From: Methanopyrus kandleri AV19
GTDB lineage: Archaea > JAADCQ01 > Methanopyri > Methanopyrales > Methanopyraceae
Direction: 5' to 3'
DNA: 32,000 nucleotides
Assembly: GCF_000007185.1 (NCBI RefSeq)
Contig: NC_003551.1
Span: forward strand, 630,001-662,000
This document shows, piece by piece, positions 4,727-32,000 of the stretch (the first letter of the stretch is position 1; the number at the start of each line of letters is the position of its first letter). The notes below the pieces were generated by a model, which was not told where the DNA came from, did not search any database, and saw only the letters and a program-made list of their open reading frames with translations. The position numbers and the translations under genes were made by a program.

Positions 4727-4887
4727 TACTCGTAGAAGGCGGCGCTACCGCACTCCTCGCACAGCCCCGCGAACCGCAGCTTTCCACGCTCTCGCTTGGC
4801 CCTCTTGTACTCCTCCTTCGTGCAGTTCGGACAGACCACCGCGGGGTCGTTGGGCGACACGATCGGTACGTGAGAGCTCTTCACCAT
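4723..4887 (-). CDS. Small zinc-ribbon protein, 54 aa, below the ORF-track size cut-off
   Basis: My translation is MVKSSHVPIVSPNDPAVVCPNCTKEEYKRAKRERGKLRFAGLCEECGSAAFYEY. Two CxxC pairs lie 20 residues apart. The ATG at 4887 is preceded by GGGGTGAT (Shine-Dalgarno-like) 5 nt upstream. It fills the otherwise empty gap between truD and trpD. Confidence 0.6.
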   Translation of the reverse strand: MVKSSHVPIVSPNDPAVVCPNCTKEEYKRAKRERGKLRFAGLCEECGSAAFYEY

Positions 4888-4929
4888 CCGGTATCACCCC
4901 CTACGTCGCCGTACCGGCCCACAACGCCG

Positions 4930-4950
4930 TAGGTAAGGTAAAAAGAAAAC
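4930..4950 (+). promoter_or_regulatory. Candidate A-rich TATA-like element (AGGTAAGGTAAAAAGAAAAC) upstream of trpD
   Basis: This is the only AT-rich patch in the 74-nt divergent spacer. It is centred about 20-25 nt upstream of the trpD GTG at 4962, so trpD could be leaderless or nearly so. There is no experimental support. Confidence 0.3.
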
Positions 4951-4961
4951 CGCCGCGGCTC

Positions 4962-5999: not shown

Positions 6000-6059
6000 C
6001 ACCTCGTACCCCGGACGATACGTTTCGGACTCTATAACGATTGGTGCGGGCGGGGGCGT

Positions 6060-9000
6060 TTACCCGCCGTAGTCCTCGATGTAGTCCTCCGGCTTCGGGG
6101 GCTCCGGCTTCAGACCCTTCCTCTCCCGGATCTCCCGAATGATCTGCTCCTCCAGCTCCTCGGGCACGCGCTCGTAGCCGGCGTGCTCGGTGGTCCAGAT
6201 CGCGCGACCCTCGGTGGCCGATCGGATGTCGTTCGCGAATCCGAACATCTCGGCCACGGGTGCCTTACCCTTGATGATGACGGTATCTCCCTCCTGCTGG
6301 ATCTCCTCGATAGTACCTCTACGTCCCTGTATCTCCTTGGTCACGGCACCCATGTAGTCCTGCGGTACGGTCACGTAGATGTACTGCATCGGCTCGAGCA
6401 GGTGCGTGTCGGCCAGCAGCATGCCGCCGTAGATCGCGCGCTTGATCGCCGGGATCACCTGAGCCGGACCTCGGTGTACGGGGTCCTCGTGGATCTCGGC
6501 GTCCACGAGGCTGACCTTCACTCCTCGGCACGGCTCCTTCGCCAGCGGACCCTCCTCCATGGCCTCCTCGAAGCCTTCGATCAGCAGCTCCATCACCTCG
6601 TTCAGGTACTGCAGACCCACGGTCTTGTCCAGGAAGAAGTTCGTACCCTTGACGGTCTCGACGGCCTTCGCGTCGTCCCGGTCCATACCGTACTCCATCA
6701 GCGTCTCCTCGAGCTCCTTCTTGCTCATCTCCTCCGGGTTGAACTTGCCCTCCTCGATGGCCTCCACGATCTCCTCCTCGACGGGCTCCACCGTCACGTA
6801 GAACTTGTTGTGCTTGTTCGGAGACTTGCCCTCGACCTCATCGTCACAGACTCCGAACACGCCCTCTCGGTACACCACGATCGGCTCCGAGACCTTGATG
6901 TCCACACCGCGCTCCTTGATCCTGTGGGCGATGATCTCTAGGTGCAGCTCGCCCATACCGGAGACCAGGTGCTGTCCGGTCTCCTCGTTGATCTCGACCT
7001 TGACCGTCGGGTCCTCCTTCGCGATCTGGTGCAGGATCTCGATCAGCTTGGGCAGGTCCTGCGTGTTCTTAGCCTCGACGGCCACGGTGACTACGGGCTC
7101 GGCGAAGTGCTGCAGCTCCTCGAACGGCTCGATCGGATCCTCCGGGTCGGTCACGGTCTCACCGGCCCACACGTCGCGCAGGCCGGTCACGGCCGCTATG
7201 TTACCCGCCGGCACCTCGTCCGTGCGGATACGGTCCGGTCCCATGTAGATACCTACCTGCTGCACTCGGGTCTCCTTCTTGGAGCTCGCCAGGTACACCT
7301 GCTGACCCTCGCGGATCGTACCGGAATATACCCGGCCCGTCGCCACCTCACCCGCGTGCTCGTCGATCCGGACGTCCGTCACGACCATGGCCAGCTTGCC
7401 GTTCGGGTCGCACTTCCTCAGCGTCTTACCGTCCTCGCTCTCCGGATCACCCGGCCAGATCTGCTCGATACGGTACTCCTGCGCCGTGACCGGGTCCGGG
7501 AGATGCTTGACCACCATGTCCAGCACTACCTGGTACACGGGAGCCTCCTGGGCCAGCTCCTTCTGCTTGTCCTGCTGACAGTACTCGATGATGTCCTTGA
7601 ACGTGATCCCGGTCTTCTCCATGAACGGGAAGCTGATACCCCAACCGTAGTACGCGCTTCCGAACGCCACGGAACCGTCCTCGACGCTCACCTTCCACTC
7701 GTCCTTGAACTCCTCGGGCGCCATCTGCTCGATCATCTTGTTGACCTCGGAGATGATCTCCAGGAACCGGTTCTGCATCTCCTCCGGGCTCAGCTTCAGC
7801 TCGTTGATCAGTCTGTCTACCTTGTTGATGTACAGTACCGGCCTCACGCGCTCTCGGAGAGCCTGCCGGAGCACGGTTTCCGTCTGTGGCATCACACCTT
7901 CGACCGCGCATACGACCACGATCGCGCCGTCCACGGCTCGCATGGCCCGGGTCACGTCACCCGAGAAGTCCACGTGACCGGGGGTGTCGATGAGGTTGAT
8001 CAGGTACTCCTCGCCCTCATACTCGTGCACCATGCTGACGTTCGCGGCGTCGATCGTGATACCTCGCTCCTGCTCCATCTCGTCGAAGTCCAGCACGAGT
8101 TGATCTCCGGCCAGCTCCTCCGAGATCATCCCGGCGCCGGCCAACAGCTGGTCGGATAACGTCGTGTTGTGCACCACGAACCCTTCGGCGGCGAAGTTGT
8201 GATGCTCTTCGACCGTGAAGTCGTACACGTAACCGTCGTACTCGACCTCCTCGACGCGTACCACCTCCAGGAAGCAGACGTCGTCCCTGGCGAGCGCCTT
8301 CAACCTCTCGAGTGCCTCACCCTCGACCCCGACCGCCTCCAGGGTGCTGATCACCTTCTCGAGGCTCGACTTAGTCAGGCCCACCTGGCCACCCTCGTAG
8401 TTCGAGTAACAGTTGAACATCCTCGTGGTTGGGACGTCACCGCGAACTTCCCGAAGGATTTCCCCGCTGATCGGTACCTTCTCGAGCTCCGAGGACGACG
8501 CCTTCTCCATCAGTTTCTTCAGCTTCTCCGCCTTCTCGGGCTCCCGGAAGCCCGGGAACCTCTCGAGCGACCGGGCGCCCGACACGTACAGGGTGTAGGC
8601 ACCGTCTCCCTCCCTGAGGTAGCTGGCCACGTCGAACTTCTGCAGGAGCAACTGGAGATCTTCCAGGAACTCCCGGCTCACGGAAGTCACCGATACCGCG
8701 CTCCGACCCTCCTCGACGGTACCGTCCGCGTCGAAGTACCCGCGGATGAACTCGGCGATGCAGTCCAACGGTGCCCTGGTCAGGAAGTCGTTGACCCGGA
8801 TCCTGTGGGCCTTCTTCCTCCTCGGGTAGTCGAAGAGTGCCTCCAGGATCCTCGGGACGGTCTCCGGGAAGTCAATCCGCGCGGTCTTGCCCTCATACCT
8901 TCGGACTCGGACCTCCAGACCCATGTCGCTCGCGATCCGCTTTACCTCCCCCTGAATGGCTTCGGACCCGTTGGTGAGCTGGTTCCAGCACCCGTCACCG

Positions 9001-9833
9001 AACATGAGACCCGCCAGGTAGAACAGATCCTCCGGCTCGGGCAGTCGGATGGGCTTCGTCGACTTGGTGTTCGACCGGTAGGAGACCTCGACGGCGTCGT
9101 AGAGGTCCGCCAGGTCCAGACCCAGCTCTTCCGCCAGGTCGACGAGGATATCGGCTCGAATCCGTCCCTTTCTCAGCTGGTAGTAGAACGAGTTTTCCTC
9201 GATGTCCACCTCCAGCGTCTCCCATAGCGCCTTGATTCCGCGCTCCTTGGCCAGCTCGAGAACGCTCTCCGCCTCCTCTTCCGGCAGGTGGACGAAGAAG
9301 TCCCTGCCGAGCCTGCGGAACACCTCGCGCTTGAGCTCCTCCTCGCTCATCCCTTCGTGGACCAGCTTCTGGGTGCACACGATGTAATCTCCGATCTCCA
9401 GCTCGTCGGCCCTCTTCTCGACGATCTCACCCGAGGGATCCAGGACGAGGAACTTGTGCTCCGGCGTCGTACGGATGCTCCTACCGTTCTTCACCTCGAC
9501 CTCCACGAGCTTGTCCGCCTTCAGGCGCCACACGTGAGTTATCTTGCCTTCCACGATCTCTACGGCGTCCTTGTCCAGCGAGGATACTCCGACGGGCTCT
9601 CTTAGCTCGTAGACCTCTTCACTCTCATCGCACTTCACGAGTCTGCCGCGCTCTTTCAGCTCCTCGAACAACTCGTCCGCTCGGACGAACCGGCCGTCTG
9701 CTAGGCAGATCTTGGTCTCGGGAGCCACACACTTACCGTGGTCTATATGGGCGATGATACCGATATTACGGATCTTCCCCGGCTCGGTCATTAGTTTGCG
9801 GCACTTCTCGGCCATCTTCTCCTTACGACCCAA
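6060..9833 (-). CDS. fusA: Translation elongation factor 2 (aEF-2) precursor interrupted by an intein; the mature protein would be 735 aa
   Basis: The N-terminus [15 protein letters not shown]...[14 protein letters not shown] and the continuation [20 protein letters not shown] rebuild the canonical G1 P-loop. The DTPGHVDF and NKVD GTPase motifs are present, as is the diphthamide region [11 protein letters not shown]. The TTG start at 9833 is supported by conservation of the MGR(K/R)..M N-terminus that I recall in other archaeal EF-2 proteins. Confidence 0.95.
8166..9731 (-). mobile_element. Intein (522 aa) with a LAGLIDADG homing-endonuclease domain, inserted between K34 and T557 of the aEF-2 P-loop
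   Basis: It starts with Cys ([13 protein letters not shown], block A) and ends with VVHN followed by a +1 Thr. Two LAGLIDADG motifs are present: [12 protein letters not shown] and [12 protein letters not shown]. Removing it restores GHIDHGK|TTLSD. Coordinates were computed from the reading frame as residues 35-556. Confidence 0.92.
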
Positions 9834-12268: not shown

Positions 12269-13558
12269 TCAGCTCTCCCCTTCCTCTTCTCCCTCCTTGA
12301 ACTTGGAGTAATCCACTGTGAGCTCCACCGTACCGGTACCCACCGGTACCGGCTTACCCACGATGATGTTCTCGAGCACTCCACGCAGCTCCTCGACGTC
12401 ACCCGACGTCGCCGTTTCGGTGAGGACCCTCGATACGTACTCGAAGGCGGCCTTCGTGAGCGGGCTGCCCTTCAGCTCCATCACCGAGTAACCGCCGACG
12501 GACCGTACGCTACGCAGCTCGCCCCAGAACGACATCATGTCGCTGATGAGCATGAAGTGGCGCGGGTCTACGGAGATCCCCTGGCTCTCGTACACCTCCT
12601 CGAGCTGCTCGATGATCGCGTTCCGCCCGGCCTCCACCCCGAGGAGCACGTCCACTATCTTCGGGTCGTTCGTGTTCACCCGCGTAGCGTCGACCTCGTC
12701 CAACTGCATCAGCTGCAGCATCAGGTAGGCGCGCTTCGCCACCTTGCTGTTCCTGGCGCGCTGGGAGATCCACCTAGGAGGCCGTCCCGGGGCTCCCTCA
12801 GGACTACCTCTGACAAGGATGTAGTATTCCTCCTCGTCCTCATCGTACTGGACGGAGGCGTGGAGTACCCCCTCGATCCCCTTCACTACGGCCTCGCGGA
12901 GGTCGTTCGCGATCTCGGCCAGCTCCGATGCCGACTCCACGTCCGCGAGCGTCACCTTGAGGACATCTCCCTCGAGGTGACACGCCCCGCCGGTGTGCTC
13001 CCGGACGAAGGCCACGAGCTGGTCTTCGTCGATCCCGTGTTCCTCTATCCGCTCCTCATCCAGGCCGATCTCGATGGCGCACTCGTCCGGGTTCACCTCG
13101 ATGTACTCCGTGAGTTCCTCGAACCGCGTCTCCTCGATCTTTCGCGCCACTCCCTCGGCCTTCTCCCGATCGCTGCGGTACGGTTCCTTGAGTCTCAGTT
13201 CGATGACCCACGTCGGGGGACCGTGATAGGGGAGAGAAAGGACACGCTCCAGCGCCGGCATACCGGTGGTGATGTCGATCTCCGCCACACCGGCCAGGTG
13301 GAACGTACGCATGGTCATCTGCGTCGCCGGCTCACACATCGACTGAGCCGCCAGAACGCCCACCGCGTCGCCCCGCTCGATCTGTCGGCACTTGTAGTTG
13401 CGTACGAGCGCCCGGAGGACCTTCCGCACGGTTTCTTCGTCGGCGTCCTTGAGCTCCTCGTCCTCCGACACCTTCTCGACGATCTCTCGGTGTACCGAGT
13501 CCGGGAGCTCCACGTCCTCCTCCTTACAGACCTCTTCGAGCAGCTCCTCCACGTTCAT
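12269..13558 (-). CDS. rpoA2: DNA-directed RNA polymerase subunit A'' (Rpo1C)
   Basis: Contains [28 protein letters not shown] and the C-terminal [14 protein letters not shown]. The start is taken at MNVEELLEE (ATG 13558), which forms an ATGA overlap with the rpoA1 stop. The longer tracked ORF (to 13648) adds a G/R/E low-complexity leader that overlaps the rpoA1 coding sequence. Confidence 0.92.
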
Positions 13559-16416
13559 CCCGCGCCTCCCCTCACTCTTCTCTCTTCCTCCAGCACCACT
13601 TCCTTCACGACCTTCAGCGCCTTCTCGACGTCCAGGTTCAAGCCCCACTTCTTGGCGGGATCTACGCCGTCTTCACCGTACGTCAGCTGGATGACGTTGT
13701 TGGCGCTGTCGCGCACGCGCCCTCCGGAGTCCACGATCAGGTCCAGGGCGGTGGTCACGTAGCGTCGGTGTAGATAGCCCGAGTCCGCCGTTCTGAAGCC
13801 CTTGTCGATGAGACCCTCTCGACCGCTCATCGCGTGCAGGAAGTACTCGACCATGTCCAGCCCCTCGAAGAAGCCGGAGCGGACAAAGCCTCCCTCCTTC
13901 ACACCCGGGATGAGGCTCTTCTCGAAGTGCGGTGTCACGCGGTCCGTGTACGAGTAGTTCACTATCTTCTCCATGATATGCTCCGTGTTGTGCTTCGCCC
14001 GGTGTGGACGCTCACCCATCACGGCCTGCTGACCGCCGATCAGGGCCATCCTCGCGATGTTGGTGATACTTCCACGCGCACCCGACTCCGGCATGATGTA
14101 CGCCGGGTTGAACAGGTCACGGTGCTTCTTCAGCAGTCTCTCGGTCTCCACTCGCGGCTGGTTGAGGATGGCCATAACCTCGCTCTCGATGTTCCTCTCC
14201 AACATCTCACCGCGCTCGATCCGGCTCCGGTTGCAGGTCTCGTGCTCCTCGAGCTCCTGGAGCCTCCGCTCGCCCCGCTCGATGATCTCCTTCGCCTTCT
14301 TAGCGGCCTCGTCACACAGCCGCTCCACCTCGTCCCGGAACCTCTCGTAGATGTCCTCGAACTCGTCTATACCCAGCGTGAACCCGTACCTCGTCACGAA
14401 CCGGAGACCGAGTCGACCGATCTTGTCCATGGCCCTCAGTGTGGTCTCGGCGGCCTTGAACCACGGGTACGACTCGCCCCTCGCTACCTCCCTGGCCGCG
14501 TAGCGGTGGACGATCTCGGTCATGATACCGTGGACGGTCTTCTCGTCCAGGAACCCCCGCACGATGCGTCCCTTCTCGATTACCACCTTACCGTGCTCCT
14601 CGTCGTCCGGACAGACCGCGTTCTCCAGCTCCACTCTGTCCAGCCAGTCCGGGAGGAAGACGCTCAGCAGCTGTCGGCCGGTTACGAGCGGCTCACCCTC
14701 CCTGGGTTGCCCGCAAACGAACTCGAGCTCGTGTATCTCCTCTTCGAACCCACGCCGGTACTTAGCCTCGGGTTTCAGCTTCACCTCCGTGGGCTCGAAC
14801 CAGTCACCCTCCTTCTTCACCTCCTCCAGGAGCTGGTAGGCCTCTCGGAGCGGTATCCACGCCCTCGACAGCAGGTGGATACCGACGATCGCCTCGTGGA
14901 TGGGGCTGTTACGGACGTCCTCGTGCCCGTTCTTAGGCGGCCACAGGTGGTACACGTAACAACCCATCAACTCCCTGACCTCGGCTCGAGCCTCCTCGGA
15001 CTGTGGCACGTGCAGGTTCATCTCGTCGCCGTCGAAGTCCGCGTTGAACCCCACTCCCATATAACACGCCGCGGGCAGTCTGAACGTCTTACCGGGCATT
15101 ACCCTCACGCGGAAGCCGAGCTCCGACTGGATGTGTAGCGTCGGCTGTCGGTTGAACATCACCGGGTCTCCATCCATGAGATGGCGCTCGACGACGTCGC
15201 CGGGTTCCAGGTCTTCCGCGAGCTTCTCCTTGTTCTCGTCGGTGATCCTGATCCGGCTCCCGTCCCGCTTGACCACGTAGTTGGCTCCCGGGTGCTTGTT
15301 CGGACCGTTGAGTACCAACTTCCGGAGCCGGTCGATGTTCCACTCGGTGACCCGCTCCGGAACGGTCAGCTCCTTGGCGATGGCCTCGGGGACACCCAAC
15401 GTGAACGGGTCGAGCTCCGGATCGGGTGTGATGACGGATCTGGCCGAGAAGTTGACACGCTTACCGGCCAGGTTCTGCCTGAACCGACCTTCCTTACCCT
15501 TCAACCGCTGCACGATACCTTTCAGCGGCTTGCCGCCGGTCCGGTGCCTGGCGACGGGTACTCCACCGATCTCGTTGTCGATGTACGTGGTGACGTGGTA
15601 CTGCAGCAGGTCCCACTGGTCCTCGATGATCGGCTCGGGGGCACCCGCCTCGAGCGACTCCTTCAGCCTGAGGTTCACCCGGACGATATCCACGAGCTTG
15701 TGCGTCAGGTCGTCCTCGGCACGTTCGCCGGTCTCCAGGATGATCGAGGGTCTCATGGTCACGGGAGGCACCGGCAGGACCGTCAGGACAGCCCACTCCG
15801 GCCTCGCCCGTTCCGGGTGGAAACCCAGGATCTCGACGTCCTCGTCGGGGATCTTCTCCAACCACGCGCGTATGTCCACGGGCCACAGCCGCTCGTCGTC
15901 CATCATAATCGTCGTGGGCTTCTGATACGTGATCTTCCTGGATTCGGCGCCGCAGTGCGGGCACGATTCACGCTTCTCGGCCCGGTCTATCACCTCCGCC
16001 GCCACCGACTTGACGGGCCTGATACCTTCCCTGACCTCCCGGAGGTAACTCTCGATCTCGTCCTCCGGTAGCTTGACCCTCCCACACTCCGGGCACGTGG
16101 CCCGCAGTACGTCCTTGATCCTCTCCGCGTACCTGGGGTGCAGGACCGGGCGGGCGAGCTCTATATGGCCGAAGTGACCAGGGCAGCGACCGGCCGGCTG
16201 ACCGCACGTCCGACACCTGAGTCCGGGGTCGATGACGCCCATCCTGGTGTCCATCACGCCTCCTTCGATCGGGTACCCGTCCTCGTCGTACGTCTCCGGG
16301 CTAGTTACCTCGACCTTGGACATCTTCCGGATCTTGTCGGGCGGTAGGATCCCGAACAGGATGCGCTTCACGTACTTGGGTGGATCTTGAACGCGAGGTT
16401 CCTCCATCAGGGTCAT
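13555..16416 (-). CDS. rpoA1: DNA-directed RNA polymerase subunit A' (Rpo1N)
   Basis: Contains the zinc motif [33 protein letters not shown] and the catalytic [10 protein letters not shown]. Its ATG overlaps the rpoB1 stop as ATGA. Confidence 0.96.
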
Positions 16417-18368
16417 TCCTCCTCACCCTCCTCCCGTTCGGACAGCGAGCCGACTTCCAGCACGGCGTCCATGCAGAACGACTTCAGCTCGTCCAGCAGA
16501 ATCTTGAACGCGTACGACATCTCGACGCGGTCAGCCCGCACCTCGCCGCAGATGGGACAGATCGTCTTACCCGTCGCGGCGTGCACGTAACACAGCTCTC
16601 CGCAGTTCGGGCAAATGTACGCCTCGTACTTGTCGGACTCGTCGAGCAGCCTCTCTTTCAGGAACAATGAGGCGCCCCAAGCCACGAGGTCGTCGCGTTC
16701 CATCTCTCCGAACCTGAGACCGCCCTCCCGGGCCCTTCCTTCCGTCGGCTGCCTGGTGAGTACCTGCACAGGACCGCGCGATCTCGCGTGGTACTTGTCC
16801 TTCACCATGTGGTACAGCTTCCGGTACAGGCACACTCCGATGAAGACCTCCGCTTCGAGCTTCTGCCCGGTACGGCCGTCGTACATGACCTCCTTACCGG
16901 TGGGCTCGAACCCCAGCTCGCGGAGCATCTTCTTGATCTCCTCGTAGGCCTCCTTCGGGTTCGAGGTGAACGCGGAACCGTCGATCCTCTTCCCGCTCAG
17001 TGCCGCCGCCTTACCCGCGAGCGTCTCCAGAATGTGGGCCATGGTCTCACGCGACGGTAGCGCGTGCGGGTTGAGTATCAGGTCCGGTGTGATCCCGTCC
17101 TCGGTGAACGGCATGTCCTCCTCCGGGACGATCATCCCGATGACTCCTTTCTGACCGTGCCGTGAGGAGAACTTGTCACCGAGCTCCGGCACCCGCTCGT
17201 CCCTGATCCTCACCTTCACCAGCTTGTGTCCGTCGCTGGTCTCGGTGATGATCACGGAGTCCACGATACCGGAGTCGGTGTGCCGGATGGCCGTGGAGGA
17301 CTCACGCCTCTCCTCCGCCGGCAGTTCCTCCGGTCGGAATTCCTCCAGGAAGCGCGGCGGGCTCGTCTTCCCGATGATCACGTCACGACCCTCGACGCGC
17401 TCCCCGACCTCCGCCAGTCCATCCTCTCCCAGGTGCTTGTACGCGTCCTCGGACCGGTATCCACGCACCTCCTTCTCCGGGATGCAGAACTTGTCCTTCA
17501 TCCCGCCCGGATACGTCCGTGCCTCGTCTTCGAACGTCTTGAAGAAGAACGACCTAGCCAGACCGCGCTCGATCGCGGACTCGTTCATGATGATGGCGTC
17601 CTCCATGTTGTAACCCTCGTACGTGAGCACGGCGACGATCATGTTCTGGCCGGCCGGCCGCTCGTCGTAGTCGAAAGCTTCCGTACCTCTGGTCTTCACG
17701 AGCGGTCGGTGCGGGTAGTACAGCAGGTGACCCCGGGACTCCATCCGGATGGGGTGGTTCGCGGCGTAGAAGCCCAGCGCCTGCCGGGTCATGTTCGTAC
17801 CCATCGTGTTACGCGGCGCCGAGTTCGACTCCGGCCAGGGGATGCAGCTGCAGCACGTTCCGAATATCGCCGCCGGGTCCAGCTCCACATGTGTGTACTT
17901 CTTCCGCTCCTCCTTAGGCATCGAGTAGAACTCCTCCAGGGACTGGGCGATGAGCGCGTTCTCCTCCTCTTCGGCGTCCAGGAACTCGATGACGCCTTCT
18001 TCCTCCAGGTCCTTCCACGAGATCTCTCCTTCTCGGAGCTTCTCCAGGTGCTCCTCCGTGAGCTTGACCTCGCCGTCCTCCACCACCAGTAGCGGACGGA
18101 CCACGCGTCCACGGTCACAGTTCACGTGCACCTCGTTCAGGTCCTCGTGGTAGGCGGCGTTGACCCTCGGATGCAGCACGCCCTCCCGTCGCAACTCCCG
18201 GACTTTCTCCACGAACTCCTCCGGGTCCTCCACGTATCCGATCAGCCGTCCGTTCAGGTACACCGGGGTTCTATCTTCCTCGCGTTCGGGACCCTTGAGA
18301 ACATGCTCAACGGCCTTATCCACACGGGTCTCCACGTCGTCCCGCACGCCACCCTCCTCGTTCGACAC
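16413..18368 (-). CDS. rpoB1: DNA-directed RNA polymerase subunit B' (C-terminal half of Rpo2)
   Basis: Contains GDKFSSRHGQKGV, GLRFGEMERD and the C-terminal zinc ribbon CPNCG...CPICG. GTG start. Confidence 0.95.
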   Translation of the reverse strand: MSNEEGGVRDDVETRVDKAVEHVLKGPEREEDRTPVYLNGRLIGYVEDPEEFVEKVRELRREGVLHPRVNAAYHEDLNEVHVNCDRGRVVRPLLVVEDGEVKLTEEHLEKLREGEISWKDLEEEGVIEFLDAEEEENALIAQSLEEFYSMPKEERKKYTHVELDPAAIFGTCCSCIPWPESNSAPRNTMGTNMTRQALGFYAANHPIRMESRGHLLYYPHRPLVKTRGTEAFDYDERPAGQNMIVAVLTYEGYNMEDAIIMNESAIERGLARSFFFKTFEDEARTYPGGMKDKFCIPEKEVRGYRSEDAYKHLGEDGLAEVGERVEGRDVIIGKTSPPRFLEEFRPEELPAEERRESSTAIRHTDSGIVDSVIITETSDGHKLVKVRIRDERVPELGDKFSSRHGQKGVIGMIVPEEDMPFTEDGITPDLILNPHALPSRETMAHILETLAGKAAALSGKRIDGSAFTSNPKEAYEEIKKMLRELGFEPTGKEVMYDGRTGQKLEAEVFIGVCLYRKLYHMVKDKYHARSRGPVQVLTRQPTEGRAREGGLRFGEMERDDLVAWGASLFLKERLLDESDKYEAYICPNCGELCYVHAATGKTICPICGEVRADRVEMSYAFKILLDELKSFCMDAVLEVGSLSEREEGEEE

Positions 18369-18384
18369 GGGTTCGGGGTCCCCC

Positions 18385-19983
18385 TTACTCGGTTTCGAGC
18401 CCGATCTCCTCCAGGATTTCGATCACCTCGTCCTCATCCGCGTCTTTGTGAACGACCTCGGCGTACAGGGCCAGGTTCTTGATCGCACCACAGTTGGCCC
18501 CCTCGGGGGTCTCGTTCGGGCACAACCGGCCCATGTGCGTCGGATGCAGGTAACGAGCCTCCTTCGGGATCGACCACTTACCCACACCCAGCTCCGTAGC
18601 GGCCCTGATCCTCCGCAAGTGCGACATGGTGGACATCCAGGTATACCGCTCGAGAATCTGGGAGACTCCGGTTCTGGGCCGGTAGTGGCCGGTCCTCCAG
18701 GTACCGGTCGACATACAGCTGCGGATGTGGTCCGTGACCTTGTCCGGACGCACGATGTACCGGATAGTGGGCTCACGACCCCGGGAGTACGCGCGCTCGA
18801 ACTGATACCTCATCTCGCGGGCCAGCTGCTGGAACGCGTACTCGTAAGCCTCGTACAGTAGGTCACCCGCCAGCTTGATCCGCTTGTTCGCGTAATGGTC
18901 GCGGTCACGGACGCTCTTCACCTTGACCCTCCGGTACTTCAGCTCCAGCACCTCGCGCACCATCTTGAGGACCTCGTCGGCCTTCTTCCGGAAGACCTCC
19001 TTCAGCTTCTCATCGTCGTCCAGGTCGTCGACCTCGGCGATGTGCGGTAGGAAGTACTTGGCCAGTACCTCCTTACCCCGCTTAATTCGCTCCTCGCGGC
19101 TCTCGTCGGGTCTCGACAACCTGCCGATGTACTCCAGCGCGTCCTCCTGGCTGCCGATTTCCTCCTTCACGAGTACCCTCATCTGCTCCGCCATGATCGT
19201 GGCGAACTCGGGACCGACGCCCTCCATGATCTCCTCCTCGGTCAGTCCCAGCGCCCGTAATAGGATCACCACGGGGAACTTCCGGTACACGGCCGGCATA
19301 TCGATGACCAGGCGACCCTTCCGGTCGATGACGTCCACGGGACCGCGGTACCGCTCGCCCCGGGAGTACACCCTGGAACGAACCTCGTCCAGTACACCAC
19401 GCTCCCGGATCTTCTCGTTCACCCGTCGGTTCGGCGCGATATCCTCTAGGGACATCAGCACGCGTTCCGACCCGTTGATGATGAAGTAGCCGCCCGGATC
19501 CTTCGGATCCTCGCCGACTTCGATCAGCTCCTCCTCCGACAGGCCGTAGGTGTTACACACCTTCGACCGGACCATCACCGGAAGCTCGCCGACGTAGACG
19601 TTGTCCCGCTCGACCTCCTCCCCGTCCTCGTACATTACGATCTCCGCGTACAGGGGCGCGGAATAGAGCATGTTCCTCAGGCGTGCCTCCATCGGGTAGA
19701 TCTTCCGACGCGCGCCGTCCGGCTCTATCGAGGAGGGTTCTCCCACCTCGATCCTCTCGAACTCGATTCGGTAGCTGGCTCCCTCCACTTCCGGTTCGAT
19801 CGGTTCCATCTGCTCGATCAGCTGTTGCAGGCCCTCGTCTATCAACCAGTGATAGGATAGGAAGTGATGGGCGATGAGTGGGTGCGTCTTTACATCGCCC
19901 AGGAGTTCCTCGTTTCTACGTAAATAACCCTCCAATAACGCCAAATAATCCTCCTCACTCAGAGACTTGACGGGTTCGGCCAT
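18385..19983 (-). CDS. rpoB2: DNA-directed RNA polymerase subunit B'' (N-terminal half of Rpo2)
   Basis: Shows N-terminal Rpo2 homology (HHFLSYHWLIDEGL, GGYFIINGSERV, and the ETPEGANCG fork loop near the C-terminus). Split rpoB is typical of methanogens. Confidence 0.95.
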   Translation of the reverse strand: MAEPVKSLSEEDYLALLEGYLRRNEELLGDVKTHPLIAHHFLSYHWLIDEGLQQLIEQMEPIEPEVEGASYRIEFERIEVGEPSSIEPDGARRKIYPMEARLRNMLYSAPLYAEIVMYEDGEEVERDNVYVGELPVMVRSKVCNTYGLSEEELIEVGEDPKDPGGYFIINGSERVLMSLEDIAPNRRVNEKIRERGVLDEVRSRVYSRGERYRGPVDVIDRKGRLVIDMPAVYRKFPVVILLRALGLTEEEIMEGVGPEFATIMAEQMRVLVKEEIGSQEDALEYIGRLSRPDESREERIKRGKEVLAKYFLPHIAEVDDLDDDEKLKEVFRKKADEVLKMVREVLELKYRRVKVKSVRDRDHYANKRIKLAGDLLYEAYEYAFQQLAREMRYQFERAYSRGREPTIRYIVRPDKVTDHIRSCMSTGTWRTGHYRPRTGVSQILERYTWMSTMSHLRRIRAATELGVGKWSIPKEARYLHPTHMGRLCPNETPEGANCGAIKNLALYAEVVHKDADEDEVIEILEEIGLETE

Positions 19984-19994
19984 CGGGTTCCCCC

Positions 19995-20273
19995 CTACTC
20001 GGGCGGATTGGTCACGACCCGGTACACCACGGTCTTACCCGCGGTCGGGCTGTCTCGGACGATTTTAACCAGACTCCCGGGCTTGATCCGCTTGCCGAGT
20101 TTCTCGCTCAGCGCCACGACCACGGGGTCGTTCGTGTGGATCCTCGGCAGGTCGTCCTTCTCCACCCCGAGCTCCTCGAGTATCTTCTCGATCTCCTCCT
20201 CGTCGTCGATGACCTCGTGCTTCGGCACGAGCACGTGGTTCAACACCACGTCCGGATCCAACCGCTCCGCCAT
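19995..20273 (-). CDS. rpoH: DNA-directed RNA polymerase subunit H (Rpo5)
   Basis: Contains NHVLVPKHEVI, LPRIHTNDPV, KPGSLVKIVRDSPTAG and YRVV. The start is taken at MAERLD (ATG 20273), preceded by a purine-rich GGTGGGGGAAGGGG. The tracked 110-aa version adds 18 unlikely residues. Confidence 0.9.
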   Translation of the reverse strand: MAERLDPDVVLNHVLVPKHEVIDDEEEIEKILEELGVEKDDLPRIHTNDPVVVALSEKLGKRIKPGSLVKIVRDSPTAGKTVVYRVVTNPPE

Positions 20274-20781
20274 GCCCCTTCCCCCACCCGAAGGGGCACG
20301 TTTCCACGCACAGACCGCAGTCCACACACGAGGCCTCCGAGAACCCCAGGAAGACCTCCCGCACGGCGGCCGCCGGCGGTATTATACAGTCCACCACGGG
20401 ACAGATATCCCAGCACGTTCCGCAGAGCTCGCAGTCCCCCTCCACGACCGCACGGCCCTCTTCCAATCGCAGAGCCTCTACCGGGCAGCGTTCTACGCAC
20501 AGACCGCACCCCGTGCACCGGGACTCCCGGATCCACGGATGTGGCAGGAGGCGCTCCGCGATGCGCTGGACGAAGGCGATGGGGCACAGCAGCGAGGCCA
20601 CATCGGAAGGCAGCCGAGACACCTCGACGTCCTCACACAGCCTACAGGTCGCGCAGAAGGCCTCTACAGGCCCTTTCCGAAGCTCCAGTGAACCAGCGGG
20701 ACACACCGCGGCGCACTCACCGCAGGCTACGCATGCCCGGAACTCCAGGTCCGGCCGGAACTCACGGAAATCCCGATACAA
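20065..20781 (-). CDS. Polyferredoxin-like protein with five 4Fe-4S Cys motifs; its 3' end overlaps rpoH
   Basis: The motifs are CVACGECAAVCP, CATCRLC(x16)CP, CTGCGLCVERCP, CELCGTCWDICP and CVDCGLCVETCP. The only possible start upstream of the first motif is TTG 20781, 7 nt after the rad50 stop. The first in-frame stop is at 20065, 209 nt inside rpoH, which gives a roughly 70-aa R/G-rich tail. Confidence 0.7.
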   Translation of the reverse strand: MYRDFREFRPDLEFRACVACGECAAVCPAGSLELRKGPVEAFCATCRLCEDVEVSRLPSDVASLLCPIAFVQRIAERLLPHPWIRESRCTGCGLCVERCPVEALRLEEGRAVVEGDCELCGTCWDICPVVDCIIPPAAAVREVFLGFSEASCVDCGLCVETCPFGWGKGHGGAVGSGRGVEPRARAEARGHRRRGGDREDTRGARGGEGRPAEDPHERPRGRGAERETRQADQARESG

Positions 20782-27625: not shown

Positions 27626-27703
27626 TGGCGCCCCGGCCGGGATTTGAACCCGGGTCCCGGGCTCGACAGGCCCGGATGATAGACCGGGCTACACCGCCGG
27701 GGC
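27626..27703 (-). tRNA. tRNA-Asp (anticodon GUC) with encoded CCA and a C at position 8
   Basis: Hand-folded cloverleaf:
- Acceptor stem GCCCCGG/CCGGGGC.
- Anticodon stem CGGGC/GCCCG with loop CUGUCGA.
- T arm CCGGG-TTCAAAT-CCCGG.
- Discriminator G followed by CCA.
- The D stem is weak (GUGU/UCAU).
- Position 8 is C rather than the universal U. Confidence 0.93.
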
Positions 27704-27735: not shown

Positions 27736-27752
27736 CCAATTATAAACTTTAC
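27736..27752 (-). promoter_or_regulatory. TATA box / BRE for tRNA-Asp
   Basis: The minus strand reads GTAAAGTTTATAATTGGGG. The TTTATAAT element is centred about 39 nt upstream of the mature tRNA 5' end. That fits a transcription start about 25 nt downstream of the TATA and a short leader removed by RNase P. It abuts the stop codon of the upstream pilin-like gene. Confidence 0.65.
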
Positions 27753-28219
27753 TCCTTAGTCCTCTCCACGACCACCTTGATCGACTCGCCTCCGCTGACT
27801 TCCACCTGATAGTTCGCCCACGACCCCTTCACGGGGTTCGAGATCTCGCTGACCGACTTCGGCCGCCCGTACAGCGCCACGTAAACCTGCAGCAACACGT
27901 TACGCCTCAGCAGATCCACGACGCCCGCGGGATTATCTCCGGAGTACTTGAGCTCGTATTCGATCCTGTCATCGTTCACCTGGCACCTCACCACCGACAG
28001 GTTTCCCGAGATCTCTACCTCCTGATCTCCTACCCGATAGGTGACGCCCACAGCCACCTGCTCCCGGGTCTTCGCGACGGCATCGCTCACAGCCTTCTTC
28101 ACGCAGTACCACTCGTACTCGGGCCCCATGTACCGGCCCGCGATGAACGCCGCAGTCAGCACGATGATGGACAACAGTACGAACTCCACCGACACCTGAC
28201 CGAACGTGCGCGCGCCCAT
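27749..28219 (-). CDS. Type IV pilin-like protein with a class III signal peptide (156 aa)
   Basis: The N-terminus is MGARTFG|QVSVEFVLLSIIVLTAAFIA. It has the prepilin-peptidase-type G|Q site, Glu at +5 and a hydrophobic helix (DUF361-like QxSxEF motif). One N-x-S/T sequon is present (NLS). Confidence 0.8.
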   Translation of the reverse strand: MGARTFGQVSVEFVLLSIIVLTAAFIAGRYMGPEYEWYCVKKAVSDAVAKTREQVAVGVTYRVGDQEVEISGNLSVVRCQVNDDRIEYELKYSGDNPAGVVDLLRRNVLLQVYVALYGRPKSVSEISNPVKGSWANYQVEVSGGESIKVVVERTKE

Positions 28220-28226
28220 CGGGGGC

Positions 28227-28802
28227 TCAGCCCCCGGGTGGTATCACGTACAGGCCGAACTCGAACGGCTTGCCCGAGGTCGAAACCCACCATTCGTCAC
28301 CCGGAGGCCACTCCGTCACGGGCGTGGGTACCGGATCGTCCACTGTCCTCGGATCTATCAGGACAACTCCCGGGGTTCTGGGCGGCCACCCGCCGGATGG
28401 CCACCCGACCAGGATCGGTACGCTAGCCGTAACTCCCACCTTCTTCTCAAACCGACCACCGAGCCGCAGGATCACCACGATCTCGCCCGGACCACCGGGC
28501 TCACCCTTCACCCGGACCTTGAGGTAGTACTCGCTGTTCCCTATTTTTTCCGGCAGGTGTATCTGGTTCGCTGTGCTCTGCCAGTCAGGGAGCCAGCTGA
28601 TCGTACCGGCGATCGCGTTGGCGACGTAGTTCGCGATGTACCGGGCCTCGATCAACGCCATCACGTCCGACACTCCGAGGAACGTGCCCACCACCGAGTA
28701 CGTGAAGTACGCACTGAGGACCAACATGATGAGGAGCAACGCCGCGAACTCTATCGTGACCTGGCCACTAGGCGTTGCGGAGAACCAGCTTCGGACCCTC
28801 AA
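28227..28802 (-). CDS. Type IV pilin-like protein with a class III signal peptide (191 aa)
   Basis: The N-terminus is (M)RVRSWFSATPSG|QVTIEFAALLLIMLVL. The TTG start overlaps the upstream pilin-like gene by 35 nt. The C-terminal half is Pro/Trp/Gly-rich. Confidence 0.75.
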   Translation of the reverse strand: MRVRSWFSATPSGQVTIEFAALLLIMLVLSAYFTYSVVGTFLGVSDVMALIEARYIANYVANAIAGTISWLPDWQSTANQIHLPEKIGNSEYYLKVRVKGEPGGPGEIVVILRLGGRFEKKVGVTASVPILVGWPSGGWPPRTPGVVLIDPRTVDDPVPTPVTEWPPGDEWWVSTSGKPFEFGLYVIPPGG

Positions 28803-29211
28803 CGACGCTCACCTCCACGACCCCGGGTACCGTCACGTTCTCAACCACCACGTCCTTTCCGAACGAGTAGAACTTTGCGACGCCTTTAACGCCGTTACCC
28901 TCCACGATCACGTAGTACTCGTCGTGCTGCCCGGTCGGTTCCACACTCACCGTGTAGCTCCCTTGGGTACCGGGTCTACCCTTGATCCTGACGGTGAACC
29001 TTGTCCCGACGTCGCACGCGGCGGCCTTGTCGAGCACCCTGGCCAGCTGCTCAGCCATCGCCTTCGCCTCGAGGGCGGACGCGGCCTCCTCGACACCGCC
29101 TGAACCGTACATACCTTCCTTCACGAACGCCATCGCCATACCGACGGCGGTAACCCCTATCAGTAGAACCAGGAGGTACTCCAGTGAGGCCTGACCGCGG
29201 GAGAAACTCAT
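28768..29211 (-). CDS. Type IV pilin-like protein with a class III signal peptide (147 aa)
   Basis: The start is taken at MSFSRG|QASLEYLLVLLIGVTAVGMA (ATG 29211), a textbook short charged leader plus RGQ site plus Glu+5. The tracked longer ORF (to 29250) adds 13 residues that would bury the signal peptide. Confidence 0.8.
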   Translation of the reverse strand: MSFSRGQASLEYLLVLLIGVTAVGMAMAFVKEGMYGSGGVEEAASALEAKAMAEQLARVLDKAAACDVGTRFTVRIKGRPGTQGSYTVSVEPTGQHDEYYVIVEGNGVKGVAKFYSFGKDVVVENVTVPGVVEVSVVEGPKLVLRNA

Positions 29212-29235
29212 AAACAAAGTCGGGTAACCCCCAGT

Positions 29236-31821
29236 GTGGGGTTGTACCACAAGTTGCCCCTCTTAAAGGAGCGTGGCCAGGTGTTCACTCTGGACGCGAT
29301 GGCGGCGCTCTTGCTCTCCTTAGTGCTAGTGTCCTTAGCTTTGGATTATATTCATATGGTTAGCTGGCCTACCATCTCGCCTCGTCAGGAGGTCTCCTCG
29401 ATCGCCGTCGTCCAGCCCGTGAAGTGGGGATGGGTAGCCACCGGCGTGTACAGGGGCGAGCTCCCGCACCTGGAAGTCAAGGAGATCCGTGTCACGGATT
29501 GGAACGTAAATGGCAATAAGTGGACCGCGAAGGTCGACGTTTCGGATAAACTCCCACCGGACAAGAAGATCGTGATGGCGTTCCTGGTTCTCATGGTCGG
29601 AGACAACCACGTCGTCGACGCTTACGACCCGAACGATAAAGATCTAGGTGTGTACGTCGAGGTGAACGGTGACGAGAACGGTGAACGCGTGTTCCCGACG
29701 GTCCCGATCGACTGGAGGGGCAACATAGGGTGGTGGTTCCCCTACAACTACAACGGTCGTATATGGGAGAAAACCCTGGTCGACCTCACCGTGGACGATC
29801 GGGGCAACCCACTGCTCGTTAACAAAACCTCGGACGACAACATCAGAGTGCGGATTGGCGTCAAAATTCGAGGTTACTGGGGCAGACAATACAGGGATAA
29901 AACACGGATAGTACTCGTGCTCGCCCCGAAGCAGTTCGACGTCGCCGTCCAAGTCTGGCGTCCGGACGGCCCTCAGATCGGCCCACAGCCGTACGATGAC
30001 CGCGATGGTAAGACTGGAATACCGGTCAAAGGCTCCCTAGCGACTGATCTCAGCAGGAACAAGAACCCTGACCCTGTCACGAACTTCGCCGACTGGTACG
30101 GGGAAGATGTGGACAAAGATCGGCTGGAAAATCCTGACGAGAACCCCGTAATCACCGTCAAAGACCTGGTTATGAGAATAGGTAGGGTCTTTGGTAACTG
30201 GAGACCGTGGACTCCGGTGGGAACCGGTCCTTACCGTGAGTATTACGATAAAAGTGATGGAACCGTCCACAAACTGGAGGACGCGAAAGACCCGAACGGT
30301 GACGGGGCCGATGGTATAGTCCTGACGCGTCACGGTGCTCAGATCGACGATTCGTACCATCTGTTCGCGGCGTACGTGATGATGCCCAGGACGTTCTCGT
30401 CTGTATGTCCGCTGGACGCTCCGATACTCGCGTTAACAACACAGCGTAACGGTCCCCCCGAGTTCGTAGTGTACGCTAACGTCAGAACCCCCCAAGATAT
30501 AGCGAAGATCGACTGGGCTAACGTGGACGAGTCGTTAGGAGCGTCCAACATAGGAACGAACACCACCTACAGATGGAATAAGACTGAGGACCTTGACTTC
30601 TACAATGACGAGCTGAAGTACTACAAGTACTACGATGACTGGTACTCGAGGAGCATAGGCATTCCGGCCGATTACCTCTACGGTGCTTCGGGATACAGCC
30701 ACCTGGTCGTGATCGACCCCGAAGCTCAGTGGCCCATTACTCCCGCAGGAGGATTGATAGGCACATCGTCGACGGTCGAGCAGGTGCTGAGGACGCACAG
30801 TGTCCTGTATGCGTATCTGAGGTTACCGAACAGGAGTCACGGAGTGCACACGCACTTCAACTACGACACCACTCATGGTTACTACTGGTACTTCAAGTTC
30901 CCCGGCGGCATTCCCGTTCAGGGAGGCCCTCAGCCCCGTATCGTGGCCATCTGGATTAAGGCGCCCCACTGGCTCTACCAGTGGGCTCCGTGGGCCGACT
31001 CCGTGAGCGCATCGCTTGGATTCGCCAATACCAGGTTCAATAACGTCCCCGGTGACGGCCGCAGCGACGAGCTCGATATGACCATCAACATCCAGAGGCC
31101 CCCCGACATGCCTTCGGTGATCAAGAACTGGGCAGTTCAGGACGTGTACATGTTCGGCAACCTGGACGAGGATCCCGACAACTTCTGGATCTACATCGAT
31201 GATGAGGAGGTCTGGCCCGACGATTGGGTTCCCCCGTCGATCGAGGACCTGAAGTCGCTCTCCGGTGGTAAGATCGCCACTCCGGGAACCCACACGATCA
31301 GGGTCAGGGAGTACGAGCAACCGTCTCCTGAGGCCGTCGAAATCGGTCCGTTCAACGTCCTAGTCCTGTACAAGGGCACCATGTACCTGTACCTCCCCCG
31401 CCTCAAGAGGAGCAAGGAGGACGCCGTGAACGCTCTCAGGCAGGAGTTCGAGAGACTGGGGATCGACCCGGACGATCCCAGGGTCAGGATTACGGTCGCG
31501 CCGTCTCGGGGTTACGACAAGCCCCACAAGTTCAGACTCGTAGCCTGGCAGGAAGAACGCGTACTGTACACACCTGAGTATCTCCGACGGCTATCGACCG
31601 AAGCCCTCTCTCAGCTGCAGTCCTCGGGTGCCCTCAGCTACGTGGCCATGGAGTGGGAGTACTACCAGGACACGGGAGACGCAACGAAGCTGCGTCGGGC
31701 CCTGCAATCGTTACAGCCATTGCTGAGCTCCGTCCTGGGAGTGCACTTCAAGCTGGAGGTCTGGGACGAGAAGAACAAGCAGTGGGTGACGCTGCTCACG
31801 GATCAGGGTCCAGCGATTTAA
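29236..31821 (+). CDS. Giant (861 aa) class III signal-peptide protein of unknown function; candidate pilus-associated adhesin or large minor pilin
   Basis: The N-terminus is ...LLKERG|QVFTLDAMAALLLSLVLVSLAL (RGQ site plus hydrophobic helix, Asp at +6). The rest has no motif I recognise. It is very rich in Trp (about 31 by my count), Tyr, Asn and Asp. It has four N-x-S/T sequons and Ca-binding-like DxDxDG loops (DDRDGKTG and DPNGDGADG). The start is GTG 29236 or TTG 29254. Confidence 0.8.
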   Translation: MGLYHKLPLLKERGQVFTLDAMAALLLSLVLVSLALDYIHMVSWPTISPRQEVSSIAVVQPVKWGWVATGVYRGELPHLEVKEIRVTDWNVNGNKWTAKVDVSDKLPPDKKIVMAFLVLMVGDNHVVDAYDPNDKDLGVYVEVNGDENGERVFPTVPIDWRGNIGWWFPYNYNGRIWEKTLVDLTVDDRGNPLLVNKTSDDNIRVRIGVKIRGYWGRQYRDKTRIVLVLAPKQFDVAVQVWRPDGPQIGPQPYDDRDGKTGIPVKGSLATDLSRNKNPDPVTNFADWYGEDVDKDRLENPDENPVITVKDLVMRIGRVFGNWRPWTPVGTGPYREYYDKSDGTVHKLEDAKDPNGDGADGIVLTRHGAQIDDSYHLFAAYVMMPRTFSSVCPLDAPILALTTQRNGPPEFVVYANVRTPQDIAKIDWANVDESLGASNIGTNTTYRWNKTEDLDFYNDELKYYKYYDDWYSRSIGIPADYLYGASGYSHLVVIDPEAQWPITPAGGLIGTSSTVEQVLRTHSVLYAYLRLPNRSHGVHTHFNYDTTHGYYWYFKFPGGIPVQGGPQPRIVAIWIKAPHWLYQWAPWADSVSASLGFANTRFNNVPGDGRSDELDMTINIQRPPDMPSVIKNWAVQDVYMFGNLDEDPDNFWIYIDDEEVWPDDWVPPSIEDLKSLSGGKIATPGTHTIRVREYEQPSPEAVEIGPFNVLVLYKGTMYLYLPRLKRSKEDAVNALRQEFERLGIDPDDPRVRITVAPSRGYDKPHKFRLVAWQEERVLYTPEYLRRLSTEALSQLQSSGALSYVAMEWEYYQDTGDATKLRRALQSLQPLLSSVLGVHFKLEVWDEKNKQWVTLLTDQGPAI

Positions 31822-31960: not shown

Positions 31961-32000
31961 TTAGGGCCACACCCGGATGACTCTGCCGTTCTTCAGCACC
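31961..32000 (-). CDS. 3' end of an unidentified minus-strand gene that runs off the right edge
   Basis: An open frame ends ...VLKNGRVIRVWP followed by TAA at 31961-31963. Only 12 codons are visible, so no function can be assigned. Confidence 0.3.
   Translation of the reverse strand, partial: VLKNGRVIRVWP

Follow-up and report, generated by a model that had tools for sequence, protein, structure and literature searches.

An oversized pilin-like protein, probably a minor pilin, encoded in the type IV pilus locus of Methanopyrus kandleri

The closest described counterparts of the locus examined here are the archaeal Epd-type pilus loci, those of Methanococcus maripaludis (EpdA-D, MMP0231-0241) and of the Thermococcales. 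Large adhesins and five or more minor pilins are predicted components of clade-1 loci, and Makarova et al. proposed roles like that of PilY1 for the large proteins encoded in them (PMC4858521). Large adhesin-like proteins, some with class III (prepilin-type) signals, have been predicted in silico in clade-1/system-1 loci (PMC4858521; bioRxiv 10.64898/2026.04.22.720090). We analyzed a stretch of 32,000 nucleotides from Methanopyrus kandleri AV19 (NC_003551.1, positions 630,001 to 662,000; hereafter the window), near the end of which lies a gene for a protein of 855 amino acids (aa) with a pilin-type N-terminus. With a probability of roughly 0.6, this large protein is an oversized modular minor pilin, probably a tip adhesin, of the single Epd-like type IV pilus (clade 1/system 1) of M. 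kandleri. An initial annotation of the window held that there was no characterized archaeal equivalent of this size. We also found no experimentally characterized one, but the claim is overstated, given the in silico predictions.

The M. kandleri locus shares with the Epd-type loci one T2SSE ATPase, two TadC-like (T2SSF) genes and a prepilin peptidase with Peptidase_A24 and Arc_PepC matches, together with multiple pilin-like genes with a G-Q junction and major-pilin candidates of ~60-80 aa. This is the linkage by which clade-1/system-1 loci are recognized, and it is conserved across genomes. System-1-like loci from a metagenome-assembled genome (MAG) of the Thermococci and from metagenomes have the ERGQxFTLD and (R/K)GF(L/I)F(T/S) classes of N-terminus in common with M. 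kandleri. The large protein differs from the proteins that hold the equivalent slot in these systems in the size of its body, 2-2.7 times that of the other sampled lineages (846-872 aa in its family versus 307-394 aa), with similarity limited to 23 N-terminal columns. It also lacks DUF2341 and, in Pfam, any galactose-binding or other adhesin domain, and its gene is inverted relative to the operon.

Among the large minor pilins of bacteria, GspK/PilX, TadG/CpaL, PilB/PilC of S. sanguinis and CofB/TcpB combine the same leader and helix with a large extra body, are likewise encoded with a set of small minor pilins, and have the same proposed tip or initiation role. The leader of the M. kandleri protein, however, is of the archaeal kind: Gln is found at +1 and Asp at +6, and Glu5 is missing; the protein is larger than most of the bacterial ones and matches none of them in sequence or fold. 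No TadE/TadG motif and no GspK, lectin or vWA domain was found with Pfam, NCBIfam, PDB sequences or Foldseek. The likeness is thus architectural only, and we would place the protein in none of these families. PilY1, which has a Sec signal and uses a C-terminal strand for docking, is not itself a pilin. The M. kandleri protein resembles PilY1/PilC in being large, pilus-associated and aromatic-rich and in having a candidate Ca2+ loop (DPNGDG), but it has a pilin-type N-terminus, and none of the six members of its family matches PilY1/Neisseria_PilC or DUF2341 in Pfam, even at E<=5.

The longest open reading frame (ORF) of the gene, 29236..31821 on the plus strand, runs from a GTG start to a TAA stop and encodes 861 aa. 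Every relative begins at the position of TTG 29254, and homologues therefore support a coding sequence of 29254..31821 (+), 855 aa starting with MPLLKERGQ, although databases hold both forms. The gene is 100% identical to the copy in the M. kandleri assembly DUJS01000002.

Residues 1-8, MPLLKERG (29254..29277, +), form a predicted class III leader, with the cut predicted after Gly8 and Gln at +1. The hydrophobic helix QVFTLDAMAALLLSLVLVSLAL (29278..29343, +), which would form the mature N-terminus, is the sole transmembrane-like segment: Kyte-Doolittle windows above 1.6 start only at residues 8-20, the maximum elsewhere is 1.47, and the scan revealed no C-terminal anchor. The leader is thus short and basic, ends in Arg-Gly, in agreement with the [KR]-[GA] of class III signals, and leads directly into ~20 hydrophobic residues. 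All six family members share the motif R7-G8-Q9-x-F-T-L-D-A without change, even the most distant one, whose identity elsewhere is only 29-32%. The (R/S/F)G-Q junction recurs in ~10 other pilin-like genes of the locus, several of which match PF04021, so that Q9 stands where PF04021-positive neighbours have their own Gln. Szabo and coworkers are said to have reported in 2007 that Gln at +1 typifies the substrates of EppA (DUF361-type pilins). After this Gln the large protein continues VFTLDA, and not xSxE(F/Y) as in PF04021-type pilins. It fails the PF04021 model, yet has the features by which class III signals are described. Sub-threshold N-terminal matches to DUF7288 (E 0.05-0.3) were seen in three family members (P0004, P0005 and P0016), and a homology search with the 51-residue N-terminal alignment gave no matches.

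The same class of N-terminus occurs in other archaeal pilus loci. A start of the form ERGQ(V/I)FTLD is found in the Thermococci MAG (L010), in a protein of 367 aa, and on 24 metagenome contigs with ~50% guanine-plus-cytosine (GC) content, in proteins of 307-394 aa. The cassette in which it stands has a set order: two QxSxE pilins, an RGF(F/L)S(I/L)D protein, a Q-type pilin, the ERGQxFTLD protein and a (R/K)GF(L/I)F(T/S) protein. Genes for a DUF2101 membrane protein and small pilins, then T2SSF and MinD-like genes, come after this cassette in the longer metagenome loci. The ERGQVFTLDA (855 aa) and ERGFLFTP (565 aa) proteins of M. kandleri are likewise neighbours. When the family of the large protein was compared with the ERGQIFTLD family by hhalign, 23 N-terminal columns were aligned with a probability of 91% (E 1e-6), and the bodies proved unrelated or beyond detection. 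Slot equivalents were assigned, from these 23 columns and gene order only, in L010 and in the metagenome loci L017, L027 and L028, which have T2SSF, MinD-like and PF04021 genes. We conclude that the large protein appears to occupy a conserved minor-pilin slot of clade-1/system-1 pili. The cassette spans positions 8039-13412 in L010 and 4187-8407 in both L017 and L027, and its bodies are unrelated in sequence.

Database and profile searches confined the family to the Methanopyri, where it consists of five orthologues and one distant member, P0016. Relatives at 82% and 50% identity have exactly the same order of NurA, tRNA-Asp, three small pilin genes, large gene and pilus operon, and in four Methanopyri genomes the large gene has its stable place among pilin genes. 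Its product is 50% identical to the distant orthologue, compared with 45-59% for the other pilus structural proteins. The ratio of nonsynonymous to synonymous substitution rates (dN/dS) against the orthologue of a Methanopyrus sp. is 0.10, with 0.07-0.18 in six segments and 0.05-0.24 in neighbouring genes. Given this synteny, matching divergence and dN/dS, the gene is old in the Methanopyrus lineage, functional and constrained, and was not recently acquired. Diversifying selection was rejected at the resolution of the six segments.

The prepilin-like reading in the initial annotation is borne out by the conserved N-terminal class and by the position of the gene inside a complete type IV pilus locus. 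Its broader idea, a minor pilin or adhesin with a pilin helix fused to a big body, gains from the embedding in the pilus locus and from the recurrence of the N-terminal class in other archaeal loci. Very probably the large protein carries a class III signal and is part of the pilus system, a membership that is well supported. Tip location and adhesin function we infer, and we would not quite give even odds that the protein is a tip adhesin.

We propose the following course of events. The precursor would enter the membrane through its N-terminal hydrophobic helix, and the A24/Arc_PepC prepilin peptidase of the locus would cut off the eight-residue MPLLKERG, so that Gln becomes +1. The ATPase and the two TadC-like platform proteins would then build the helix, along with those of the other pilin-like proteins, into the core of the filament. 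Because a body of ~820 residues cannot pack along a shaft of ~50-60-residue pilins, the large protein would sit at the filament tip, or in an initiation complex that ends up there. The displayed Trp/Tyr/Asp-rich central module, probably stabilized by Ca2+, may bind a surface or a partner cell.

The body itself is modular, with a conserved beta-rich N-terminal domain behind the pilin helix, a branch-specific centre and a conserved C-terminal module. The N-terminal part (residues 31-235, 29344..29958, +) is predicted to be mainly beta-strand and has the invariant motifs PVKWGW and DLTVD..GNPLL. The central region (residues 236-620, 29959..31113, +) is rich in Tyr and Asp, has 12 Trp and a GC content at synonymous third codon positions (GC3s) of 0.677, and carries the aromatic clusters YYWYFKFPGG and WIKAPHWLYQWAPWAD; it is largely specific to the Methanopyrus-type branch. 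The C-terminal module (residues 621-855, 31114..31818, +) comprises a poorly modelled beta part and then an alpha/beta domain. This architecture follows from P0016, which has 623 aa and shares the two outer parts: it is 32% identical to the large protein in residues 1-205, and 29% identical over 224 residues in the C-terminal part (625-837). The centre, ~236-620, is largely missing from P0016 or unalignable.

All five motifs quoted in the initial annotation were located, at residues 164, 549, 573, 252 and 352 of the 861-aa protein. Two of them had been described as loops resembling those that bind Ca2+. One, a DxNxDG-type loop DPNGDGADGIVL (30289..30324, +), is a candidate Ca2+ site, and its DPNGDGxDGI(V/L)L does not vary among the five orthologues, whose identity goes as low as 50%; the other, PYDDRDGKTG, is not conserved. 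The DPNGDG loop resembles DxDxDG-type Ca2+ loops, and from this resemblance Ca2+ binding is putative. The loop occurs once in the large protein and is not repeated. Trp is among the best-conserved residue types, 58% of Trp positions being invariant in the five orthologues, against 41% for all residues. The four N-glycosylation sequons that had been pointed out are present (N196, N442, N448 and N532), but their number carries no signal: 5000 shuffles gave 3.76 +/- 1.8, with P(>=4)=0.53, and an enrichment was therefore rejected. Only N448 (NKT/NLT) is retained in all five orthologues; N532 is retained in four of the five. A repeat or propeller architecture is not supported, since self-BLAST gave no internal repeats at E<0.01.

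The body has no recognizable domain, as had been noted from the sequence, and Pfam, NCBIfam and PDB sequence searches yielded nothing above noise. No family was found with Pfam and NCBIfam for the large protein or any of its relatives, and PDB sequences searched by profile and single sequence gave one noise match only (E 1.3). A profile search of 1.84 billion representatives returned only the family itself and one relative from the Methanopyri, the 623-aa protein. In an AlphaFold2 model of the full-length protein, residues 19-35 form a helix and strands occur in residues 80-231, although the predicted local distance difference test (pLDDT) score of these strands is just 50-70. For the C-terminal module alone (244 aa, 6 sequences) the pLDDT was 70, with only the alpha/beta domain at ~711-855 confident (78-94).

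Several observations weigh against the minor-pilin reading. The large protein has no match to PF04021 or to any other Pfam or NCBIfam pilin model at E<=0.1, and its Phe at +3 does not fit the FlaFind-type pattern. Transcription of the gene and of the main pilus operon runs in opposite directions. The full-length model, built from a five-sequence alignment, has a mean pLDDT of 36.7 (range 22-70) and is too poor for a fold search; for the C-terminal model the best Foldseek matches were E 0.32 in the PDB and E 0.14 in BFVD, with template modelling scores of <=0.27, so that these models do not allow a pilin head, adhesin or lectin fold to be demonstrated. The gene for P0016, at 10001-11872 of L006 (Methanopyri MAG GCA_054046225.1), lies between aldehyde dehydrogenase and HcyBio genes, and within +/-10 kb of it there are housekeeping genes and no pilus genes. 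Tip location and binding, finally, are conjectural.

The main functional rival of the adhesin is an assembly-priming subunit of the initiation complex, in the manner of GspK/PilX or TadG/CpaL, whose large body would cap or nucleate the filament, or open the pseudomurein or S-layer, with no specific ligand. We consider this rather unlikely, although of all the alternatives it deserves the most weight. It is consistent with the conservation of the slot within a cassette of five to six minor-pilin-like genes across archaeal system-1 loci, with the uniform purifying selection, in which no hypervariable patch appears, and with the finding that CpaL/TadG-type large minor pilins license assembly of the Tad pilus. 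A 2026 preprint reports that piliation of M. maripaludis requires every gene of the Epd locus, and proposes a role for S-layer-like accessory proteins in priming the envelope (bioRxiv 10.64898/2026.04.22.720090). However, the bodies in equivalent slots show no sequence relationship and vary in length between 307 and 872 aa, as would be expected of a ligand-binding module adapted to each lineage more than of a conserved interface for nucleation. Priming or capping is compatible with a tip location, and the priming and adhesin roles are not mutually exclusive.

Alternatively, the large protein could be a pilin-anchored surface protein outside any filament, in which the class III signal serves export and anchoring to the membrane or a pseudopilus, as in the Sulfolobus bindosome, and the body is a binding protein, an enzyme or an envelope component. 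The stand-alone position of the P0016 gene among housekeeping genes would suit such a protein. Archaea do put class III signals on non-pilin surface proteins, the bindosome being the example (PMC4858521; bioRxiv 10.64898/2026.04.22.720090), and in Table S5 of Makarova et al. some of the large proteins associated with clade 1 are listed under 'predicted S-layer protein' (PMC4858521). We regard this explanation as improbable, since pilin genes closely and stably surround the gene in the four Methanopyri genomes, its N-terminal class co-occurs with minor-pilin cassettes elsewhere, and Pfam, NCBIfam and PDB sequences gave no match to an S-layer, solute-binding or enzyme family. M. kandleri is an autotroph growing on H2/CO2, and for that reason a sugar bindosome is unlikely.

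The outlier composition noted in the initial annotation, and its suggestion that the gene was acquired, were examined against the 18 cytoplasmic genes of the window, the reference for all z-scores. The 861-aa ORF contains 31 Trp (3.6%), exactly as had been counted, with 5.3% Tyr, 4.5% Asn and 8.7% Asp. Relative to the reference, Trp (z=+6.7), Asn (+3.7) and Asp (+2.5) are in excess and Glu (-2.3) is depleted. The protein is therefore an outlier among cytoplasmic genes, but its composition is common to the secreted proteins of the locus and to the orthologues. Trp makes up 2.5% of the 565-aa, 4.6% of the 304-aa and 4.2% of the 191-aa protein of the locus, and the secreted proteins of the locus have ~3-8% Glu and 13-24% charged residues, compared with 28-49% charged residues in the cytoplasmic neighbours. 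The orthologue in a relative with 67% GC shows similar values (W 3.7, Y 4.9, N 4.1, E 3.6) and is encoded by the lowest-GC large gene of its locus (63.7%), though its GC content at third codon positions (GC3) is 0.87. This is the composition of an extracellular protein in an organism with unusually Glu/Arg-rich cytoplasmic proteins, and we attribute it to the extracellular location.

The GC content of the ORF is indeed low, 57.1% compared with 63.0% in the rest of the window, but not as low as the ~53% estimated by eye; the lowest 1-kb windows of a windowed scan have 55.3-55.4%. The deficit lies mainly in codon position 1 (0.578 versus 0.62-0.75), as a result of the amino-acid composition. Synonymous GC3 is 0.72, compared with 0.814 +/- 0.039 in the reference genes (z=-2.4), a modest but real shift. 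This extra drop in GC3 and the higher synonymous divergence (dS 0.95) suggest weaker codon bias and not foreign origin.

A recently acquired foreign gene, with GC content and amino-acid composition derived from its donor, is accordingly very hard to credit. The gene does have the lowest GC content and the lowest synonymous GC3 among window genes, a tRNA-Asp gene flanks the pilin block, and farther along the locus the ATPase gene and one TadC gene have GC3 values of only 0.52-0.55. Against this, orthologues occupy the same site beside the same tRNA-Asp in the genomes at 82% and 50% identity, the divergence of the protein (50%) equals that of other pilus structural genes, and the orthologue in the 67%-GC genome keeps the amino-acid bias at its GC3 of 0.87. 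The codon-position-1 origin of most of the GC deficit and the restriction of all homologues to the Methanopyri point the same way. Equally far-fetched is an ordinary type II membrane protein with an uncleaved signal anchor and no relation to the pilus, for which it could be said that no pilin hidden Markov model reaches threshold and that leader cleavage is only predicted, since anchors are not conserved residue by residue whereas R-G-Q-x-F-T-L-D-A stays invariant as the rest drops to ~30%, the motif recurs inside pilus loci of other archaeal classes, the short basic leader with Gly and then Gln is that of PF04021-positive neighbouring pilins, and a dedicated prepilin peptidase is encoded ~4 kb away.

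Most of the pilus locus, with about nine of its pilin-like genes, lies beyond the window, which ends 179 bp after the stop codon of the large gene. The convergent pilus operon begins 140 bp 3' of that gene and was read in M. kandleri L003. Its first gene, of which the window contains the 3' end (31961..32000, -, ending ...VIRVWP*), encodes the 565-aa pilin-like protein with the N-terminus ERG-FLFTP (hyphens mark the junction). The second gene encodes a 304-aa protein starting MRG-QITVDAL. There follow three small pilins, the prepilin peptidase (L003 15858-16832; Peptidase_A24, E 8e-18; Arc_PepC, E 1e-5; Pfam), a 332-aa cytoplasmic protein, and two or three pilins of ~60-80 aa, RG-QGGIEYLL..., with PF04021 matches. 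Two T2SSF (TadC-like) proteins (E 1e-21 and 4e-24; Pfam) come next, and the last gene listed is that of the T2SSE ATPase (E 2e-50; Pfam), which has a PilB3_C tail. Tables S2/S3 of PMC4858521 give M. kandleri exactly one type IV filament ATPase, of clade 1, and no archaellum ATPase. The 304-aa and 565-aa proteins were considered as paralogues of the body and rejected, as their similarity in hhalign is confined to the N-terminal helix.

Three small pilin-like genes lie upstream of the large gene in divergent orientation. The nearest (28768..29217, -) begins (M)SFSRG-QASLEYLLVLL, most likely at ATG 29211, matches PF04021 weakly and is conserved in the related loci L001, L002 and L011, where the pilus genes also keep their order. 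The second (28227..28802, -) encodes 191 aa, SG-QVTIEF..., with 4.2% Trp and an L001 orthologue that is 57% identical. The third (27749..28219, -; 156 aa, FG-QVSVEF...) matches PF04021 (Class_IIIsignal) at E 4e-8, above the curated cut-off, and is the only one of the three to pass the PF04021 threshold, although all have N-termini of the form G-Q(V/A)(S/T)(V/I/L)E(F/Y). In all, the locus encodes about a dozen prepilin-like proteins, with the large gene amid them. A further ORF of 83 aa (L003 17901-18152, -), uncalled in the assemblies and overlapped by a short plus-strand gene call, has a Class_IIIsignal match and the N-terminus EG-QGGVEYLILIAALIGLG; it is probably another small major-type pilin paralogue.

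The likely starts, ATG 29211 for the nearest small gene and TTG 29254 for the large one, are separated by ~42 bp (29212-29253), which contain an AACCCC..GGGGTT inverted repeat; an A/T-rich ATAAACAAAG box is found just inside the small gene. With so short a spacer, either both promoters overlap coding sequence or the transcripts are nearly leaderless. A tRNA-Asp(GTC) gene (27626-27703, -; marginal in Rfam at 29.3 bits) is located between NurA and the first small pilin gene. Because it has the same position in L001, L002 and L011, it is a stable boundary and not a recent integration site. On the far side of the locus, ~9.5-13.3 kb past the window end (L003 21081-22568 and 18795-19790), in a region of about 62% GC and a GC3 of about 0.80, the pilus ATPase gene has a GC content of 47.5% and a GC3 of 0.52, and one TadC-like gene has 51% and 0.55. 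The ATPase is 86% identical in protein sequence to its L001 orthologue, whose GC3 is 0.94. This shift at synonymous sites of the ATPase and TadC genes is strong and specific to M. kandleri.

The rest of the window is housekeeping in character, with genes for an RsmB-like methyltransferase, Rio2, TruD, TrpD, aEF-2 with an intein, ribosomal proteins S7 and S12, NusA, and Rad50-Mre11-HerA-NurA; its last 12.7 kb are 100% identical to the M. kandleri assembly. The intein of the elongation factor 2 gene (6060-9833, -) has a LAGLIDADG homing-endonuclease domain, and its splicing domain covers residues 44-556. The last of the large ORFs at 12269-19983 is an RNA polymerase Rpb2-type gene according to the L003 annotation. 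An ORF of 238 aa at 20065-20781 (-) has atypical GC content at second (0.59) and third (0.62) codon positions; one assembly annotates it as a ferredoxin-like protein, and because the others annotate only a 92-aa Rpb5/RpoH gene there, the longer call is probably an over-extension.

Filaments have been reported on M. kandleri, and the discrepancy between them and the missing archaellum genes is still called unresolved (PMC10117864). Since there are no archaellum genes and the sole type IV filament ATPase is encoded here, the filaments described in 1991 possibly come from this locus. The locus is the only candidate machinery for the filaments of M. kandleri, and within it the large protein, specific to the lineage, stands out most and offers a concrete target for immuno-electron microscopy or filament proteomics. 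A bolder scenario, which we regard as doubtful, is that the polar tufts of 'flagella' seen in 1991 were built by this locus with the 855-aa protein as tip module, and that its Trp/Tyr/Asp-rich centre of ~385 residues, largely specific to the Methanopyrus-type branch, would be a new Ca2+-stabilized binding fold attaching the cell to chimney minerals or partner cells, for example those of Pyrococcus.

Nothing here points to a new principle, and the functional role proposed for the protein stays conditional. The large protein is an orphan, restricted to the Methanopyri, and an enlarged occupant of a conserved minor-pilin slot. It also holds a caution for genome scans: against a highly charged cytoplasmic proteome, secreted proteins become outliers in composition and GC content with no horizontal transfer involved. 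System-1 pili appear to hold minor-pilin slots set by N-terminal classes (QxSxE, RGQxFTLD and RGF(L/I)F(T/S)), in which the globular bodies are swapped or expanded between lineages, in parallel with the modular pilins of bacteria. The bodies in these slots may mark where host- or surface-specificity evolves.

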